DNA of 16,097 nt from a virus: UHGV virus genome UHGV-1827629; one strand, written 5' to 3'. Every line of letters begins with the position of its first letter. Within the stretch, counting starts at the first letter, position 1. The position numbers and the translations under genes were made by a program. Shown here in pieces: positions 1 to 14,004 of the stretch. The notes beneath the pieces are model-generated. The model saw only the letters and a program-made list of their open reading frames with translations. It was not told the origin of the DNA and did not search any database.

Positions 1-853
1 TTGCATCTCCGCGCCGAAAGGTGCTTCCGGTATAGCGTGCGGAGCATATTAGCGGTTCAACCAGAGAGCTATCGAAATTCACCGAAATAAGCACGTTCTG
101 GCCCTTTTCAGGCATTCGCTCACTACAGCTTATCCAACCATCCGGAGTTACCGGAGAGCTGCCACCCTGAACAGTAGGCATATCCGGACCTTTGCGAATC
201 GCCCTGGCAAGATCGATTGGGTCGTCGTACAACCAGTCACCTGTTTGCGGATGATTGGCTTCTGCCAATTGTGCAGCCCATTCCAGGCCGTCTTTGTGTC
301 CTTGCAGATAGTCCAACGGCAACTCATCACGATTACTTACGGGTTCGATTTGTTCGGAATTACCGGACAACTGCATGGTACCTTCATTGGTGAGGGTACC
401 ATCTGCACCCTGAAGCATGGCTGCCCGGCACTCATCAACAGCCTGACACAGCTTGGCGCGGTGATGTCCAGCCATAGTCCCTTTGTTCCAGTCATGCCCC
501 ATTGTCATGCCGTAAGCATGGTGGAGAAGGCGCTTGAAACACTCAGGCACAGCTACCGGCGCTGGAGGGGCGGTGTAGAGCGGCATTACCTCAATATTGA
601 AGATATCCCCCTCGCTTGGACACGCCTCTGCGCTACCGTAAACCCAAGGGTGAACGACTCCGTTACGCTTGTTGATTAATCTGTGCGCCCACGCCACAGG
701 CTCCGCTTCGAGCGATGCCAGCGCGATACGCGCATTATTAATCAGGAGGCTATCAGCAGGAGATAAAACAACATGAGCGTTACCCTCCGCATCAATTTCA
801 GAATTCGTAATTTTTCTGAACAGCTTTGCCAGTTCTCTGGTAATAGTGCTCAT
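1..853 (-). CDS. Phage accessory protein, N-terminal 284 codons only (ORF continues past window start); DUF551-like motif WISCSERMPEKG near the edge
   Basis: ATG (cat at 851-853 on + strand) preceded by GGTGAGGA SD 7 nt upstream; I translated the reverse complement by hand and found no stop down to position 1. Absent from the ORF track because it has no in-window stop. Family name is from memory. Confidence 0.55.
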   Translation of the reverse strand, partial: MSTITRELAKLFRKITNSEIDAEGNAHVVLSPADSLLINNARIALASLEAEPVAWAHRLINKRNGVVHPWVYGSAEACPSEGDIFNIEVMPLYTAPPAPVAVPECFKRLLHHAYGMTMGHDWNKGTMAGHHRAKLCQAVDECRAAMLQGADGTLTNEGTMQLSGNSEQIEPVSNRDELPLDYLQGHKDGLEWAAQLAEANHPQTGDWLYDDPIDLARAIRKGPDMPTVQGGSSPVTPDGWISCSERMPEKGQNVLISVNFDSSLVEPLICSARYTGSTFRRGDA

Positions 854-856
854 GGG

Positions 857-1291
857 TTAGTCCTCACCTTTCTGTTGCACTACCGGAACCGATAAATCGA
901 CGCACCAGGAGATAACGCCGAATTGATCATCGTTCTGCGCTTCACCCCAAACGTAATATTTTGATCCTGGCCGACCCATTGCCGGGTCAAATACTTCTAT
1001 GCCGCGTTCTGCCGTTAACGACATCAGAATCTGATGCAGGCCGCCTTTGATGTTCAGTGACGGAACGGTCAGGAAGTAAATAAACCCGTAAAGCAATTCG
1101 GCCTTGCGCTGGCTTCCGTAAAAATACGGGATTTTGTAATAATCCAGCGCGTCGTCGAGCCAGTCTGTTTTGTCGTGGAATTTCTGATGCCAGCGTTCCA
1201 CTACCTCATCGACAGGTTGACCGGCAACCATTGCAACGCAGGTAGCCATGCAGGTGTTAAATGTTGGCTGCATTTGATGTTGAAGCATCAC
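857..1291 (-). CDS. Hypothetical phage protein (144 aa), Cys/His-containing
   Basis: ORF track; start overlaps the upstream gene's stop in an ATGA arrangement (1288-1291); stop sits inside the SD of the next gene. No confident family assignment. Confidence 0.5.
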   Translation of the reverse strand: MMLQHQMQPTFNTCMATCVAMVAGQPVDEVVERWHQKFHDKTDWLDDALDYYKIPYFYGSQRKAELLYGFIYFLTVPSLNIKGGLHQILMSLTAERGIEVFDPAMGRPGSKYYVWGEAQNDDQFGVISWCVDLSVPVVQQKGED

Positions 1292-1893
1292 TCCCCCTTA
1301 CCGATGCCAGCGGCGCGGTCTATGCGTTCGATTTCAGCCAGAATTAAAGCCCCTGCTTTTACCAGGTTGCGACGGCGGGCATTTGGCTTCCACCATGAAG
1401 CATCCCAAGGCCACCCCCACGGCTTGCCACCATTGCGGTTAACAGTTCCTGTTTCGTTTATGTAACAAACCGCCGCCATTGCCAGTTCCCCGTTGCAGTG
1501 TTCGTCATCATGCTCTGGCATCCACCCCTCAACCGATTGTTGCCGCTGGCGCTCTGCTATCACATCCAGAAGTGCAGGATTGAACGCCAGCACCTCCAGT
1601 TCAGCAATCCGCTCCTCATACCGAGCGCCAACGGAAACGGCTTTATGGAAGGCTTCGCACCATTTGGACGATTGCGCCTGCATCTTCTCCAGCTCATCCA
1701 TCAGCGCCAGCACGGTAGTGGGGTTTGCTGCGGAGTTCAGCGCGTTCAAGGCAGTGATATCTGCATCAAGCTGAGTTCCTTCTGCCAGTGAGATATCGAA
1801 AATGTCATCAGGCGGCATAACACTAAGGCGCTCATGTGCGCCAACTGCTGCCGCTGCGATTTCACGCAGCGCCTGTTTGTCGATGTTGCTCAT
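1288..1893 (-). CDS. Conserved phage protein (201 aa) with C-terminal motif WPW...WWKP...RRNLVKAGALILAEIER (Ead/Ea22- or DUF550-like, uncertain)
   Basis: Internal ATG at 1891-1893 (M19 of the track ORF, MSNIDKQALRE...) overlaps the upstream stop as ATGA; the track's N-terminal extension lies inside the upstream gene. Family from memory only. Confidence 0.5.
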   Translation of the reverse strand: MSNIDKQALREIAAAAVGAHERLSVMPPDDIFDISLAEGTQLDADITALNALNSAANPTTVLALMDELEKMQAQSSKWCEAFHKAVSVGARYEERIAELEVLAFNPALLDVIAERQRQQSVEGWMPEHDDEHCNGELAMAAVCYINETGTVNRNGGKPWGWPWDASWWKPNARRRNLVKAGALILAEIERIDRAAGIGKGE

Positions 1894-2507
1894 TGGGCTG
1901 CCTCCTGGCGAAGTTGGGCGGCGCGAATTGCTTTCCACTGCGACCACATTCCGTTGTAATCAGTACCGGAAAGAGTTGAGTTGCGGTAGCCGTCATCAGT
2001 GCGCAAACCTTCTAGCGTGGTCTTAGAGATGAATATCTTCTCCATTACCCATTCTTCGAATAAATCACGCTCCGTCGCTTCATCTGGAATAGCACTTGCC
2101 CGTACTTCAGCCAGGAAAGCGTCGGTGGCTGGGGTTTCACAGTAAGCAACACGCAAATTAGGCATGCACTTATCCATCATCTGCTCCATTTCGCCAGGCT
2201 CAGCAGCAGCCCAATGAGCCAATGTTTCTTTCGCTGCCGCCTTCAGCCCCGCATTCTCCGCCGCCAGCTCCCTGCACTTGCTCTCGGCGTTAGCGAGCTG
2301 TACTGCCATGTCTGTGACTTCGGCTTCAAGTTTTTCAGCATATTCAATCAGGAGATCGATTCTTTCCGGCGTTACGGTTTTAACGTATTTGCAAATCGAT
2401 GACGCATAATTATCATCCTGGAGTGTGCCAGCCAGGCCATTACAAAATTTGCGGTTCCCTTTTGTCGCCTTGATATCGGCGATGATTTTTTTAACATCTG
2501 GTTTCAT
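1890..2507 (-). CDS. Coiled-coil phage protein (205 aa), possibly Ead/Ea22-like
   Basis: Internal ATG at 2505-2507 (MKPDVKK...) overlaps the ren stop as ATGA; the upstream part of the track ORF is Arg/Gly/Pro-rich and lies inside ren. Confidence 0.5.
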   Translation of the reverse strand: MKPDVKKIIADIKATKGNRKFCNGLAGTLQDDNYASSICKYVKTVTPERIDLLIEYAEKLEAEVTDMAVQLANAESKCRELAAENAGLKAAAKETLAHWAAAEPGEMEQMMDKCMPNLRVAYCETPATDAFLAEVRASAIPDEATERDLFEEWVMEKIFISKTTLEGLRTDDGYRNSTLSGTDYNGMWSQWKAIRAAQLRQEAAQ

Positions 2508-2803
2508 GCTGACACCCTCCCGTAAAACGCCAGTACACGCTTCATTGCCACGCTGTTGCGGCATTCCTGAAATATTCCGTTGGTGCAGCTGCGCGCTGTA
2601 CCAGCTTGCTCTTCCGGCGTCGCCAGGCGATAAGTCACCGTTCGCCAGACCTTGCTCACGCGGACAATCTTGCGGGACCGTTCCAGATCGATAGCATTCT
2701 TCGTGATGCAGTTGATGGTCATGCCGCACTCTGTGGCCACATCCTTCGCGGTGAAGGTCCGGTGCGTTTCGAGATAACGCAGAATTGCCTGTTTGCCTTT
2801 CAT
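2504..2803 (-). CDS. ren: Ren-like protein (99 aa)
   Basis: MKGKQAILRYLETHRTF...KVWRTVTYRLATPEE...FQECRNSVAMKRVLAFYG matches my memory of lambda Ren (MTGKEAIIHYLGTH...KVWRTVYYRFATREE...FKECRQSAAMKRVLAVYG); located directly after P as in lambda; ATG 2801-2803 overlaps P stop. Confidence 0.7.
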   Translation of the reverse strand: MKGKQAILRYLETHRTFTAKDVATECGMTINCITKNAIDLERSRKIVRVSKVWRTVTYRLATPEEQAGTARSCTNGIFQECRNSVAMKRVLAFYGRVSA

Positions 2804-3594
2804 TGGATAAGCCCTCTCTCTTTCCCTCGCTGATACTCTTCCCAAAGCCATTGGGCCGGGGTTAGAGCTCCGAGAGTCGCTGCGTTTGGCATGCACCCGA
2901 AGCTTTTTCCTTCCGGGTGATAACCGGCCTGACGGCTCACGTGATTTGTCGGGATCACTTCATCAGAATTCTCGAGCGCCAGGACGGGGGATGGTATTTT
3001 TTCCCCACCAGCAACTTTCAGCGCCCATTCCTCAAGTTTTTTTGACGCGTATTTTTCAGTTTCAGCCTCGCTCAGCTGGCGCTGGTACATCGCTCTGCGC
3101 GTATCGGTCACAATCCAGTACATGACGTCATGAGACCACGGGAAAGCTTCTGCTCCGCCGGTATGCAGCCCTTTTTCGCGGCTATACCGATGGAACTCAT
3201 TCATCACATCAGCCAGGCCAATGCCAAGTACCGTGCCGCTATCCTTGCACCATTTGATGAATTGCCCCGGAGAAGGCCAGAAGGGTGATTCACTGGCGCG
3301 GGCATGCCGTACACCTGCGGAAAGTTGTTCGCGGGTGCGGATCCCATTCTCTGAAAACGCTGCGATCCACTGACGCTTTGCCGTTTTCTCGTCTGCGTCA
3401 GTTTTCAGGTTTGTCTGCGTAGACGCAGGGAAAATCTGCTTCAGCTGCCGAAAGAGAGAATCAACGAGGCTTTCCGCTTCGGGATTTATTACCTTCTGCT
3501 GGTCGGCGTTTCCGTTAGCCATTCTGGATAGCAGTGCCCCGTCACGCCCGTTAACTGCCTGCACAAGTTGGTTATTCACAGGAAGTCCTCCCAT
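2800..3594 (-). CDS. P: Replication protein P-like (DnaB helicase loader)
   Basis: Central block FPAS...RQWIAAFSENGIRTREQLSAGVRHARASESPFWPSPGQFIKWC resembles lambda P (FPAS...RQWVLAFRENGITTMEQVNAGMRVARRQNRPFLPSPGQFVAWC, from memory). Start uncertain: ATG at 3594 overlaps O by 19 nt; alternative ATG at 3522. Confidence 0.75.
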   Translation of the reverse strand: MGGLPVNNQLVQAVNGRDGALLSRMANGNADQQKVINPEAESLVDSLFRQLKQIFPASTQTNLKTDADEKTAKRQWIAAFSENGIRTREQLSAGVRHARASESPFWPSPGQFIKWCKDSGTVLGIGLADVMNEFHRYSREKGLHTGGAEAFPWSHDVMYWIVTDTRRAMYQRQLSEAETEKYASKKLEEWALKVAGGEKIPSPVLALENSDEVIPTNHVSRQAGYHPEGKSFGCMPNAATLGALTPAQWLWEEYQRGKERGLIQ

Positions 3595-4265
3595 CCCTCG
3601 CGGCTGTTCCAGTGAGGCGTTTCCTGCTCAGCACGTCCACGTTTAGCCAGCGGGTTAACCCTGGCGTTTCGAATCCAGACCCTGAAAGCCGAATTCCAGT
3701 CGATCAGCAGCGTGCCGCGGGAAAGGTGATAGTCCCGGAAGTTCAGCAGCTCAGTTTCAATGCTCACCCCCTTCTCGGCAGCCATGGCAATGTGATCTGC
3801 TGATGGCTTAAACAGGGGCGGGAATGGAATCTCCCCGTTTGGTGAAATCCCTATCCGACGTTTTGCGGCTTCGCTCATAAAACCTTCGCGCCCAGAGAGA
3901 GAGTTAGGTTCATTGACTGGTTCAAAAGAGTGACTGATTCTGGGTGCAGCTCCTGCACTACCCCCTAGTGAATCTGTTGCACTACCTAGTGAATCTCCTG
4001 CACTACCCCCTAGTGAATCTGTTGCACTAGGTAAGGTCAGGATGTAGATGTTTGTAGAGTTCCCTTTTGGCCCCTTCCTGAATACTTTTTTCAGTAATCC
4101 AGATTGGCAGAGATCATCAATGTGACTCATGACTGACCGCTTGCTAATTTCGCATTGGTCAGCAATGTATTGATAGCTTGGCCAGCATTCCCCTTGATCG
4201 CTTGCGTTATCTGCCAACTTCAGGAGTACGAGCTTACGCAATGGGTTACCAACCTTAATTTGCAT
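3576..4265 (-). CDS. O: Replication initiator O-like protein (replisome-organizer HTH N-terminus; ori iterons inside the gene)
   Basis: N-terminus [45 protein letters not shown] looks like a replisome-organizer HTH; gene lies between cII and P; contains direct repeats translated as [26 protein letters not shown]. Start ambiguous: ATG 4265 (SD-like GGTGA), 4277 or 4286; the track's 4376 is a TTG extension overlapping the zinc-finger gene. Confidence 0.7.
3952..4030. repeat. Candidate replication-origin iterons: alternating 24-bp (CCTGCACTACCCCCTAGTGAATCT) and 21-bp (GTTGCACTACCTAGTGAATCT) direct repeats, each with a CACTA...TAGTG dyad
   Basis: Read directly: units at 3952-3975, 3976-3996, 3997-4020 and partial 4021-4030, all inside the O reading frame, as lambda ori iterons are. 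Confidence 0.65.
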
Positions 4266-4464
4266 GGCTTTCACCATTAGCATCATGCTCACGATGCAGC
4301 CTCCTGTTATTACTGAATACAAGGTTGACACACTCAAATACGCACTCGTCGCAGATACAAACTCCATCACCGGCAATTATCATGGCGACTTCGTTGTTAT
4401 TTTTTCCGCAAAAAGAGCATTTGTGTGTCGGGTGTAAATTTGCTTTTTTCACATCAATTGGCAT
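4255..4464 (-). CDS. Small C4 zinc-finger protein (69 aa) resembling the ClpX N-terminal zinc-binding domain
   Basis: [32 protein letters not shown] parallels the ClpX ZBD as I recall it ([30 protein letters not shown]); strong SD AGGAG 5-6 nt before ATG at 4462-4464. Confidence 0.6.
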
Positions 4465-4546: not shown

Positions 4547-4768
4547 TCATGCTTCAAAATCTCCATTCACCCCATCCCGGTTTGAAATCAGGATTGCCAG
4601 CAAAAGCGACATGTTCGGAAGCAGGTTTTCCCGCCAGCGACTCACCGTTGATTTGTTAACGCCAGCCACTTCTGCGATTTTTGTCGTACCCAGTTCTGCT
4701 ATCTGGCTGTGTAACCAGCTCTCTATCCTCCGGGCCTCCAGTTTGTTGCGTGTTGTTAAGGTGTCCAT
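4547..4768 (-). CDS. cII: CII-like transcriptional activator (73 aa)
   Basis: LEARRIESWLHSQIAELGTTKIAEVAGVNKSTVSRWRENLLPNMSLLLAIL resembles lambda CII (RIESALLNKIAMLGTEKTAEAVGVDKSQISRWKRDWIPKFSMLLAVL, from memory); GAGGAAG SD upstream; position immediately after cro. Confidence 0.7.
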   Translation of the reverse strand: MDTLTTRNKLEARRIESWLHSQIAELGTTKIAEVAGVNKSTVSRWRENLLPNMSLLLAILISNRDGVNGDFEA

Positions 4769-4808: not shown

Positions 4809-5036
4809 TCAGGCAGCATGGTTCTCTGGGTGTGGAAACAGGTCGGGAAGATCAGGTCGAATTTCGTGTGCCTTAATCTCGCCACCAGTAGCGTTTACGA
4901 TGGCTGTTACTTTTTCCGGAGATACGGAACCACCGTTAAGCCACTTGTGAACCGCTGGCTGGCTAACGCCGCAAATATCTGCGAGTCGCTTCTGGCTGCC
5001 AACGATTTCTAAAGCTCGTTGAATAACTTTGTTCAT
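4809..5036 (-). CDS. cro: Cro-like HTH repressor (75 aa)
   Basis: Short HTH protein (LADICGVSQPAVHKWLNG) transcribed divergently from cI across the operator region. Confidence 0.65.
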   Translation of the reverse strand: MNKVIQRALEIVGSQKRLADICGVSQPAVHKWLNGGSVSPEKVTAIVNATGGEIKAHEIRPDLPDLFPHPENHAA

Positions 5037-9635: not shown

Positions 9636-9761
9636 ATGAACGCATACCTCACTTACGACCGAATCGAAGATCGGCGCTGGGTTGAGCAGCAGCTCACCGA
9701 CGAGAAGGAGAAGTGGATCGACGACCGGGCGAAAGAACTGATCGCCATGTTCCCGAAATAG
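9636..9761 (+). CDS. gam: Gam-like (RecBCD inhibitor) N-terminal fragment, 41 aa, apparently truncated
   Basis: MNAYLTYDRIEDRRWVEQQL resembles the start of lambda GamS ([22 protein letters not shown], from memory); GAGG SD; sits immediately upstream of bet as gam does in lambda, but stops after 41 codons. Confidence 0.4.
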   Translation: MNAYLTYDRIEDRRWVEQQLTDEKEKWIDDRAKELIAMFPK

Positions 9762-9820: not shown

Positions 9821-10666
9821 ATGGCAAACGAATTAACAATCACAGCGAAGTCGCTTCAGGAGATAGGCGTCGACGTCTCCACATGGAGTGCACTGAAGAA
9901 CAGCATCTACCCTGGCGCCAAAGACGAATCGGTAATGATGGCGCTTGACTACTGCCGCGCCCGCCAGCTGGATCCGTTGCTCAAACCTGTCCACCTCGTT
10001 CCGATGTACGTTAAAGACTCGAAAACAGGTAAAGGTGACTGGCGCGACGTGGTCATGCCGGGCATCGGGCTTTACCGCATTCAGGCAGACCGCTCTGGCG
10101 ATTATGCCGGGGCACGGGAGCCTGAGTTCGGGCCCGATGTAACTCAGACGCTTACTGGTGTCGAGGTGACCTTCCCTCAGTGGTGCAAATACACCGTTTT
10201 CAAGCGCATGCCCAGCGGCGAGATCGTCGAGTTCAGCGCCAAAGAATACTGGATTGAAAACTATGCCACCGGCGGCAGCGAAACAACGGCGCCGAATGCG
10301 ATGTGGAAAAAGCGCCCATACGGACAGCTGGCGAAATGCGCGGAAGCCCAGGCGTTGCGTAAGGCATGGCCTGAGATTGGACAGCAGCCTACCGCCGAAG
10401 AAATGGAAGGAAAATCACTGGATGTTGATATCCGTGACGTCACGCCGCGCAGCACAACAGAATCACTTCCACCAGCAGCAAGCGAAGAAACGCTTCAGGC
10501 GATAACCGATCTCTTAACATCGCTGAATAAAGACTGGGAGCAAGACTTCCTCCCAGTTTGCAGCGACATCTTCAAACGGCCAATTCTTGAGGCGTCAGAC
10601 CTCACTGAAGAAGAGGCACAGAAAGGGTTCAACTTCCTTCAGAAAAAAGCTAAGGCGGCAGCATGA
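9821..10666 (+). CDS. bet: Bet/Red-beta family single-strand annealing protein
   Basis: C-terminus [55 protein letters not shown] matches lambda Bet's C-terminus from memory; N-terminus divergent but same pattern; stop overlaps exo start (ATGA); SD GAGGGG before ATG 9821. Confidence 0.8.
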
Positions 10667-11440: not shown

Positions 11441-11659
11441 ATGACATCTGAAACAGACAACGCCATCCGCGCCGCCTGCCGTCGCTGCACCGAGAAAATC
11501 CAGCAGGCCATGCGCAAGAAGCCAAAGCCTAACTGGAACGAAACGGTGCCTCCCATCATCAACAAGCATCATAAGAAAATTGAAGCTCTGGGAGTTAGCC
11601 TCCTGGAGTTCGTCGTATACACAGGGCGGCTTAATCGCCGCTTCGGAGCAGAACAATGA
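11441..11659 (+). CDS. Hypothetical protein (72 aa), first gene of a coupled three-gene cassette
   Basis: Internal ATG of track ORF 11282-11659 (MTSETDNAIRAACRRC...); stop overlaps the next ATG as ATGA. Confidence 0.5.
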   Translation: MTSETDNAIRAACRRCTEKIQQAMRKKPKPNWNETVPPIINKHHKKIEALGVSLLEFVVYTGRLNRRFGAEQ

Positions 11660-12522
11660 CAACAAAAAAATGGGGTCATAACGAGCTTGCTCATGACCTT
11701 GCAGAGCATTTGCGCCAGAACACAGCGCGCATCTGCTGGGAGGATATGCAGCTTGGGCCCGCCGGAACGTGCCGACCTGATGTCTACTCTATTGCTCACA
11801 GCTACAGCAAGTTCTGCCCAGTCGTCTATGAGGTTAAAGTCAGCGTAGGTGATTTCCGGGCTGACGTTACAGCAGGCAAATACACCAAATACTTCAGCTA
11901 TGCAGGTGGCGTTGTTTTTGCAGTTCCTGAAGGCATGCTCAAGAAAAGCGACATCCCAGATGGTTGTGGCTTGATGATCCGGAAGGAAACTGGATGGCAT
12001 ACCCTCAAGGGGCCGACAATGCGCCAGATTGATAACCTACCTCGCGACGCCTGGATGAAGTTGCTTATGGATGGCATGAAGCGACAGGCAGAGAGAACCC
12101 AAATAAAAAATCGCGTAATCAACACCTACCTCAGCGAACAAAAACTTATGAAGCGACATGGCAGCGAAATCGCCGATCTTGTTTGTCGAGCGCATCGGTC
12201 GAAGGAGCGGCTTGAGCAGCAGGTTAGGGATAACGATGAAAGGCTGAAGAACCTGCGCCAGGAAAGTGAGGAGGAGATGCAACGCCGACGTAAGCGCCGG
12301 GAGGAATCGGAGGAAAGGTTAACCGACGCTCAGCAAGGTCTGGCGAAAGCACTTGGCCTCGACCCGAATGTCCCTATGTATGTTCTGACAAGGACGCTAT
12401 GGGAAGCAATGCGCCGACTGACCGAGGATGAAGAGATAAAGAGGTTGCGAGGAATATTGTACAACCTTGAGCGCACGCTGAATGACGGTCTGAAACCATT
12501 ACCCGGGGAGAAAGCCGCATGA
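11656..12522 (+). CDS. PD-(D/E)XK nuclease-fold protein (MmcB-like N-terminal domain) with a charged coiled-coil C-terminal half
   Basis: Motif RPDVYSIAHSYSKFCPVVYEVKVS gives a D...EVK PD-(D/E)XK signature; C-terminal ~140 residues are Arg/Glu/Lys-rich coiled coil; ATGA overlaps at both ends. Confidence 0.65.
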   Translation: MTTKKWGHNELAHDLAEHLRQNTARICWEDMQLGPAGTCRPDVYSIAHSYSKFCPVVYEVKVSVGDFRADVTAGKYTKYFSYAGGVVFAVPEGMLKKSDIPDGCGLMIRKETGWHTLKGPTMRQIDNLPRDAWMKLLMDGMKRQAERTQIKNRVINTYLSEQKLMKRHGSEIADLVCRAHRSKERLEQQVRDNDERLKNLRQESEEEMQRRRKRREESEERLTDAQQGLAKALGLDPNVPMYVLTRTLWEAMRRLTEDEEIKRLRGILYNLERTLNDGLKPLPGEKAA

Positions 12523-13100: not shown

Positions 13101-13322
13101 ATGTCCGATATCATCGACACAGCAGCAGAGATTGAAGAGCTTCAGCGTAACGCTGCCCTTTCCGCTCACCGGATCAACCGCAACGCCGTCTCAGCTGAGC
13201 ATTGCGCGGAATGCGACGAAAAAATCCCCGAGCCGCGCCGCGCTGCCGTTCCCGGCTGCAAGACGTGCTCCAGTTACCAGGAAGAAATCGAATTGAGGAA
13301 TAAGCAGAGGGGGATCCAGTGA
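13101..13322 (+). CDS. TraR/DksA-family C4 zinc-finger protein
   Basis: CAECDEKIPEPRRAAVPGCKTC shows the CxxC...CxxC spacing of the TraR/DksA zinc finger; AAGGAG SD before ATG 13101. Confidence 0.7.
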   Translation: MSDIIDTAAEIEELQRNAALSAHRINRNAVSAEHCAECDEKIPEPRRAAVPGCKTCSSYQEEIELRNKQRGIQ

Positions 13323-14004
13323 AAGATCGTGGAATGATTTTTAATGAGTATCAGGTGCGCGCCTTGCTTGATGGCAGCATGACGCAGGTTCGGCGCCCTT
13401 CAAATGGCGTCATACTCGGGCTACTGAAATTGCAGAGCGCGACGACGGAAGCATGTGGCCATGGAGCGAAGATGAGGAGCACGTGTGCGATTACTGGCAT
13501 CCATGTCCATTCGGTGCAGTTGGCGATGCGATTTATGTCAGAGAGTCATTTTCACGGCTCGACGCATTTAACTTCTTTGATCCGGCAGTTCCTCAAGAAG
13601 TCCCGGACTTCTGGTATTGGGCCGATGGTGAGCCAGAATGGGGAGACTGGACACGTCCACAATCTGGCGCAGTAATGCCTCGCGCCGCCAGCCGAATCAC
13701 CCTGGAGATAACCGGCATCCGAGTCGAGAAACTTCAGACGGCTAATGAATCAGACTTGCTGAATGACCTTGGCGACATGCTCGAACACTGCGAAACCGTA
13801 GCTGGACGAGCCTTCAACCATGCCGAGCATTATGCGATCGCTGGCGTTCCGGTAGGGCTGTGTCCAGAAATGCACGGCTTTAAAGCGTGGTGGGATAAGG
13901 CCAATGGCGAAGGTAGCTTCGACTCCAACCCTTGGGTCTGGGTAATCGAATTTAAGGTGGTGCCCAATGTTCCAGCTAATTCAACGGGGTCAGATTTACG
14001 CTGA
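13319..14004 (+). pseudogene. ASCH-like phage protein interrupted by a frameshift (N-terminus in one frame, C-terminus in another)
   Basis: Frame of 13319/13334 encodes MIFNEYQVRALLDGSMTQVRRP, then degenerates and stops at 13675; the frame ending at 14004 opens after a TGA at 13369-13371 and encodes ...CPFGAVGDAIYVRESF...PRAASRITLEITGIRVEKLQ. Both halves fit one ASCH-like protein family from memory. Confidence 0.5.

Follow-up and report, generated by a model that had tools for sequence, protein, structure and literature searches.

Where the genes of a phage accessory block begin, and whether the codons that their ends share serve for more than compactness, are the questions raised by part of the viral genome UHGV-1827629. 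The sequence analyzed is a stretch of 16,097 nucleotides (nt), hereafter called the window, and the block lies on its minus strand, from the end of the gene for replication protein P to a gene with a DUF551 domain. A first-pass annotation had delimited the region as positions 857-3594, reported four consecutive ATGA overlaps in it, moved the gene starts from long upstream extensions to internal ATG codons, and proposed tight translational coupling. The present analysis indicates that the block is very probably a nin-type segment in the early-right operon of a lambdoid prophage, that its genes start at the overlapped codons, and that they would be expressed from a single transcript with reinitiation of translation from one gene to the next.

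The junctions were read straight from the minus strand and checked against the ends of the open reading frames (ORFs). Five consecutive co-oriented gene pairs share stop and start nucleotides, three through ATGA, one through GTGA and one through TGATG (1290..1286), as is characteristic of nin-type chains, and the sixth junction is a 3-nt gap that is also annotated in relatives (Table 1). The earlier report of four ATGA motifs was exact for 2803..2800, 2507..2504 and 1893..1890; the fourth, at 1291..1288, reads GTGA. Such overlaps occur far above chance: ORFs of at least 90 codons in the window give 5 ATGA and 2 GTGA stop/start overlaps, vs. 0.02 and 0.03, respectively, per mononucleotide shuffle. 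They are not particular to the accessory block, since the early-left operon on the plus strand has ATGA overlaps at 10663-10666 (bet/exo), 11656-11659 (a hypothetical gene and the MmcB gene) and 12519-12522 (MmcB/DUF1382), as well as a GTGA overlap at 13319-13322 between the TraR gene and the next gene.

Table 1. Junctions, genes and other features on the minus strand of the 16,097-nt window (aa, amino acids; SD, Shine-Dalgarno).
Feature	Position	Strand	Remarks
GTGA overlap, O-like stop / probable P start	3576..3579	minus	GGGAGGA 6 nt upstream of GTG 3579
ATGA overlap, P stop / ren start	2803..2800	minus	stop TGA 2802-2800, ATG 2803-2801; GAGG 9 nt upstream
ATGA overlap, ren stop / 205-aa gene start	2507..2504	minus	GGAGG 8 nt upstream
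ATGA overlap, 205-aa gene stop / Ead/Ea22-like gene start	1893..1890	minus	AGGAGG 7 nt upstream
GTGATG junction, Ead/Ea22 gene / 143-aa gene	1286..1291	minus	stop TGA 1290-1288; local sequence GGGGGAGTGATGCTT
Chain end, 143-aa gene / DUF551 gene	851..859	minus	TAA stop 859-857, 3-nt gap (CCC), ATG 853-851 of DUF551 gene; GAGG 8 nt upstream
Conserved joint, ~45 nt	1861..1912	minus	SD, spacer, ATGA, first ~10 codons: GGAGGCAGCCCA ATG AGC AAC ATC GAC AAA CAG...
Replication protein P (helicase loader)	2800..3579	minus	259 aa from GTG 3579; 264 aa from ATG 3594
ren homologue, 99 aa	2504..2803	minus	phrog_142 Ren-like exclusion protein, E 2.7e-34
205-aa accessory protein, Ea-type/coiled-coil	1890..2507	minus	phrog_26126, profile positions 1-98 = residues 1-98
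Ead/Ea22-like protein, 201 aa	1288..1893	minus	Pfam PF13935 at 62.7 bits (cut-off 27)
143-aa protein	857..1288	minus	phrog_4049, family of unknown function
DUF551-domain gene	1..853	minus	runs off window end; open 284 codons to edge; PF04448 at residues 239-283
O-like replication initiator gene	3576..4292	minus	PHROG replication-initiation O-like families and Pfam HTH_36
Small ClpX-zinc-finger-like ORF, 69 aa	4255-4464	minus	CxxC...CxxC motif; between cII-like and O-like genes
cII-like gene	4547-4768	minus	
cro-like gene	4809-5036	minus	

At the three true ATGA junctions, the re-assignment of the starts to internal ATG codons is borne out by initiation signals, protein profiles, independent annotation, genomic contexts and substitution patterns. 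SD motifs (GAGG, GGAGG, AGGAGG and AAGG) lie 7-9 nt upstream of the short starts in the block, and no well-spaced SD motif was found within range of the long GTG starts at 2896, 2729 and 1947. Family profiles begin at residue 1 or 2 of the short proteins; for instance, position 1 of the PF13935 profile is aligned to residue 2 of the Ead/Ea22 protein. The alignment with lambda Ren runs from M1 to M1 with the short ren product, and the Prokaryotic Genome Annotation Pipeline (PGAP) uses the same short starts in four E. coli relatives.

Conservation of the internal starts in homologues, which had been suggested as a check, was examined by gathering homologous loci from viral contigs and locating the true end of each upstream ORF, with counts given as distinct contexts. 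The same starts were kept across many upstream contexts. For ren, the same ATG was found in 57 of them, with the upstream stop at -4 (17), -1 (13), +1 (13) or +4 nt (14). The -4 overlap was present in 23/23 contexts for the 205-aa gene and in 35/39 for the Ead/Ea22 gene, and the -1 overlap in 20/22 for the 143-aa gene.

It might be argued that the longer ORFs, with starts at GTG 2896, 2729 and 1947, are the real genes, and that 57-225 nt of each code in two frames, together with the upstream gene. Their frames are open in this window, and for the 205-aa gene 7/23 homologous contexts retain a start in the same frame, 74 codons further upstream. Nevertheless, homologues that conserve the longer N-terminal extensions, which would have spoken against the internal starts, did not emerge from the comparison. 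The extensions are interrupted in many homologues, with an in-frame stop nearer than the window's long start in 17/44 (ren), 16/23 (205-aa gene) and 22/33 (Ead/Ea22) contexts, and stops within the extension frame itself in 5/16 (ren) and 3/6 (205-aa gene) homologues. The substitution test covered the ren and 205-aa gene extensions, and the 18-codon extension of Ead/Ea22 was judged by the context test, in which any upstream start was absent in 26/33 contexts. Substitutions in the extension regions affect third codon positions as read in the upstream gene, with synonymous/non-synonymous counts of 21/4 for the P frame vs. 4/21 for the ren-extension frame, and of 37/22 for the ren frame vs. 8/51 for the frame that extends the 205-aa gene. 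Such overwhelmingly non-synonymous change, the lack of a usable SD at the long starts, and the fact that profiles, lambda Ren and PGAP concur on the first residue of the short forms make dual coding highly improbable. As judged from these comparisons, the genes start at the overlapped codons rather than at the upstream GTGs, and the extensions evolve as non-coding sequence.

The junction of the Ead/Ea22 gene with the 143-aa gene offers two candidate starts, GTG 1291-1289, with a 4-nt overlap, and ATG 1288-1286, with a 1-nt TGATG overlap. The ATG is present in 22/22 distinct homologous contexts (TGATG in 14, TAATG in 6, and a gap of 0 or +1 nt in 2), the GTG is missing in every homologue with a TAA stop, and PGAP starts the gene at the ATG, with the 1-nt overlap, in E. 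coli relatives. By this comparison, ATG 1288-1286 is the conserved start, and GTG 1291 is not conserved. The overlap that this internal ATG forms is the 1-nt TGATG and not ATGA.

For P, the 5' edge of the region as first delimited corresponds to a start at ATG 3594, a position that gives a 19-nt overlap with the O-like gene and at which GAGGG directly adjoins the ATG, leaving no spacer. The most likely start of P is GTG 3579, which forms GTGA with the O-like stop, because homologues about 82% identical have CTG aligned to 3594 and the ATG of an ATGA aligned to 3579, because the -4 overlap is found at this site in 49/49 distinct contexts, and because M1 of lambda P is aligned with V6 of the 3594 version and the match to phrog_109 begins at residue 9. 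As first delimited, the edge of the region, and with it the start of P, is therefore probably 15 nt (5 codons) too far upstream. PGAP uses the equivalent of ATG 3594 in relatives (264-aa WP_000509243.1), and this standard 264-aa annotation is probably also 5 codons too long.

If the genes of the block are expressed together, they would be carried on a single transcript from a pR-like promoter near 5098-5070. A scan between 5098 and 1, which reports consensus matches only, found no minus-strand promoter-like site and a single weak terminator-like site, at 1842-1827 in the block. On such a transcript, a ribosome ending one gene may restart on the next by termination-reinitiation, without leaving the mRNA, aided by an SD motif set 7-9 nt before the start codon, within the 3' end of the gene just translated. 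The message would thereby be fully covered by ribosomes, and the genome would be compact. The junctions have the traits of coupled pairs, namely a -4 or -1 nt overlap with the SD inside the upstream gene. Among overlapping gene pairs tested experimentally, strict coupling was found for 13/14, with the SD often important to reinitiation (Huber et al., 2019, PMC6728339); in E. coli, 4/5 of the tested overlapping pairs were coupled (PMC6728339). The window pairs resemble such termination-reinitiation pairs (PMC6728339; reviewed in PMC12548453) in their ATGA and TGATG overlaps and in the SD inside the upstream gene, but differ from those of PMC6728339 in that they are known from sequence alone.

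Several observations weigh against obligatory coupling in the block. Folding of the 81-nt junction RNAs revealed no hairpin occluding the SD motifs, and there is therefore no structure that would make initiation at the downstream gene depend on translation of the upstream one. The five overlap-junction RNAs are less stable than shuffles (z +0.4 to +1.65), the sixth, 3-nt-gap junction RNA being slightly more stable (z -0.81), and every downstream start has a good SD of its own. In other phages ren functions with gaps of +1 and +4 nt too, so the exact overlap is not required. The second codons AAA (ren and the 205-aa gene) and AGC (Ead/Ea22) build ATGA into the genes themselves, and a true overlap therefore arises only if the upstream ORF arrives in the right frame. 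De novo initiation may contribute much of the expression.

These points can be taken further, to the view that the overlaps are neutral compaction and that each gene is initiated independently from its own SD, with no regulatory consequence. The strong, well-spaced SD at every junction, the low structure of the five overlap-junction RNAs, the ren homologues that work with -4, -1, +1 and +4 nt junctions, and the built-in ATGA would all fit. On the other hand, most tested E. coli overlaps are coupled, with the SD often serving reinitiation (PMC6728339), and three junctions retain the -4 state, in 23/23, 35/39 and 49/49 contexts, so that neutral compaction appears a possible but rather unlikely account. 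By analogy with the tested pairs, we lean towards the view that translational coupling contributes materially to expression of the block.

The same overlaps might also have a bearing on gene exchange. With the SD, spacer and start codon lying inside the tail of the previous gene, a gene together with its initiation region would form an exchangeable module. At the 1890-1893 junction, the core sequence GGAGGCNGCCCA-ATG-AGC-AAC-ATC-GAC-AAA belongs to a longer joint (1861..1912) that encodes the upstream tail ...EAAQ, followed by the stop, and the downstream head MSNIDKQALR. An exact 21-mer of this joint occurs in more than 120 viral contigs. Across 99 distinct contexts, the similar stretch has median lengths of 18 nt before and 26 nt after the ATG. 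Past it, the gene bodies are of at least 49 unrelated kinds on the upstream side and at least 84 on the downstream side. The unrelated upstream proteins all end in ...EAAQ before the stop, and the unrelated downstream proteins all begin with MSNIDK. A C-terminal domain that in the window ends in ...IERIDRAAGIGKGE ends in ...IERIDRQEAVQ when a MSNIDK gene comes next, in both cases directly before the stop. The joint is found at Ea-gene junctions of P22 (eaD/eaF), ST64T, an epsilon15-like phage, ES18, Gifsy-2 and others, including many Salmonella and E. coli phages. The match to the P22 eaD/eaF junction is about 98% over 45 nt, and similar junctions occur in ST64T, ES18 and Gifsy-2.

This arrangement, a short conserved sequence between unrelated genes, is that of the boundary-sequence model (Clark et al., 2001; Susskind and Botstein, 1978, both as cited in PMC3029335). 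Accordingly, the junction sequences might persist mainly as homologous boundary sequences for swaps of accessory genes by phage or host recombinases, their translation signals being secondary. The unrelated DNA on both sides of the joint in 99 contexts and its presence in P22-like, epsilon15-like and lambdoid phages are as that model has them, Bet and Exo are encoded in the window, and the idea itself is in the literature, as cited in PMC3029335 for the two studies just mentioned. In addition, the mosaic breakpoints in close E. coli relatives, at 832/833, 1861/1898/1912 and 2514/2515/2542, each lie about 30 nt or less from a junction. However, a short conserved sequence with unrelated flanks on both sides was found at 1861-1912 and at no other junction, and what precedes ren shows no relationship from one context to another. 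Breakpoints would cluster in the same way if joins were random and selection kept those that leave genes intact, and those at 1861, 1898 and 1912 are compatible both with recombination at the joint and with random joining followed by selection. A conserved SD and N-terminal peptide could, moreover, be kept for function alone. That recombination is the main reason for the persistence of the junctions is consequently unlikely.

More specifically, the 45-nt joint could be a portable adaptor with which unrelated accessory genes are exchanged in frame through recombination at short homologies, in P22-like, epsilon15-like and lambdoid phages alike. If so, each swap would stamp an ...EAAQ tail on the upstream gene and a MSNIDK head on the downstream gene, and stop/start overlaps would serve gene exchange in addition to translation. 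We regard this as quite improbable; the joint may instead be a passive remnant of common descent, or may already figure among the boundary sequences of HK620/P22. A second short conserved segment, at 832-865 (minus strand), comprises the SD and first codons of the DUF551 gene and is shared with one relative, L004, in which the gene upstream of it is of the DUF4014 type, vs. the 143-aa gene in the window.

The genetic setting of the chain is that of a lambdoid phage. Genes for cI-like, cro-like, cII-like, O-like, P, ren, Bet, Exo and integrase functions are present, and the window is the early region of a lambdoid prophage. Its plus strand carries the cI-like repressor, Bet, Exo, MmcB and other early-left genes, and integrase. 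The accessory block occupies the place of a nin region, 3' of the replication genes in the early-right operon, and in relatives the gene order goes on to NinE and NinG past it. The best relatives are mosaic E. coli prophages that are themselves inserted beside tRNA-Thr and proA; coverage of more than 80% of the window was found in no complete E. coli genome or phage record searched. A scan of the whole window against Rfam gave no match.

Overlapping genes of this kind have long been described in lambdoid phages. The O-P-ren/ninR part of lambda was called a 'chain of interlinked genes' by Kroger and Hobom (1982, Gene 20:25, as cited in PMC7166090 and PMC8022706), and the nin region of every lambdoid phage typically contains many ATGA stop/start motifs (PMC8022706). 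In lambda, 4-nt overlaps are found at O/P, P/ren, ninB/C, ninC/D, ninE/F, ninG/H and ninI/Q. The window resembles lambda in the position of the block 3' of the replication genes in the early-right operon, in its homologous P and ren genes, in the 4-nt overlaps at O/P and P/ren, and in the further overlaps through the accessory genes. It differs in that lambda ren is followed by a 73-nt gap and ninB-ninI, whereas in the window ren is followed by the Ea-type genes, the 143-aa gene and the DUF551 gene; the O/P overlap of the window is, in addition, GTGA rather than ATGA, and one of its links is TGATG. In contrast to P22 and the mEp phages, whose Ea-type genes lie in the early-left 'ea' region, those of the window (1288-2507, minus strand) stand in the nin position after ren. 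The overlap chain is thus an already known, textbook feature of lambdoid phages since 1982, re-observed in a new mosaic of known genes.

The replication genes upstream of the block and ren are clearly identified. The O-like gene starts at GTG 4292, with AGGAGG 7 nt upstream, or at ATG 4286, and stops at TGA 3578-3576; PGAP gives it a length of 711-729 nt in relatives. P scores 196.6 bits with Pfam PF06992 (gathering cut-off 26), belongs to phrog_109 and is 36% identical to lambda P. Ren is homologous over its full length to lambda Ren, with 52% identity over residues 1-95 (E 1e-31). The 3' end of the small ORF at 4255-4464 overlaps the O-like start by about 32-38 nt, and one relative (L003) has in this place, between its YdaT and O-like genes, an ORF annotated as 'ClpX C4-type zinc finger protein'.

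The accessory proteins are less readily classified. In a profile search, matches of the 205-aa protein were confined to PHROGs of unknown function; it has no Pfam hit, and hence does not reach the PF13935 threshold, and it shows no detectable similarity to the adjoining Ead/Ea22 protein. Its relatives are named by PGAP as ead/Ea22-like or coiled-coil proteins. For the Ead/Ea22 protein, a sequence search of the PDB gave no match. The family of the 143-aa protein was found only in enterobacteria (27 clusters) and has four invariant residues, Q7, C13, H85 and D101; searches of Pfam, NCBIfam, PADLOC and PDB sequences gave no match. This set of residues resembles the Gln/Cys/His/Asp signature of papain-like cysteine peptidases, and the structure model is poor, with a predicted local distance difference test (pLDDT) score of 56.

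Two further observations concern the plus strand. The segment 13319-14004 lacks one base relative to the 687-nt gene of L004 to which it is aligned, and is split into ORFs 13319-13675 and 13453-14004; it is likely to be a frameshift, a pseudogene or a sequencing error. At 9636-9761, the first 126 nt only of a relative's 285-nt gamL gene are matched, with the ORF stop TAG at 9759-9761, and the Gam-like gene looks truncated or replaced.

Taken for what it is, the overlap pattern of the window is the ordinary architecture of lambdoid early operons and not a discovery. Its practical value lies in annotation: in this window, tracks built on the longest ORF make three genes too long, by 31, 74 and 18 codons, and the pattern is a useful rule for calling starts in the accessory regions of phages. 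The joint at 1861-1912, for its part, provides a clean and countable case for the long-standing question whether short conserved boundary sequences are used in phage mosaicism.

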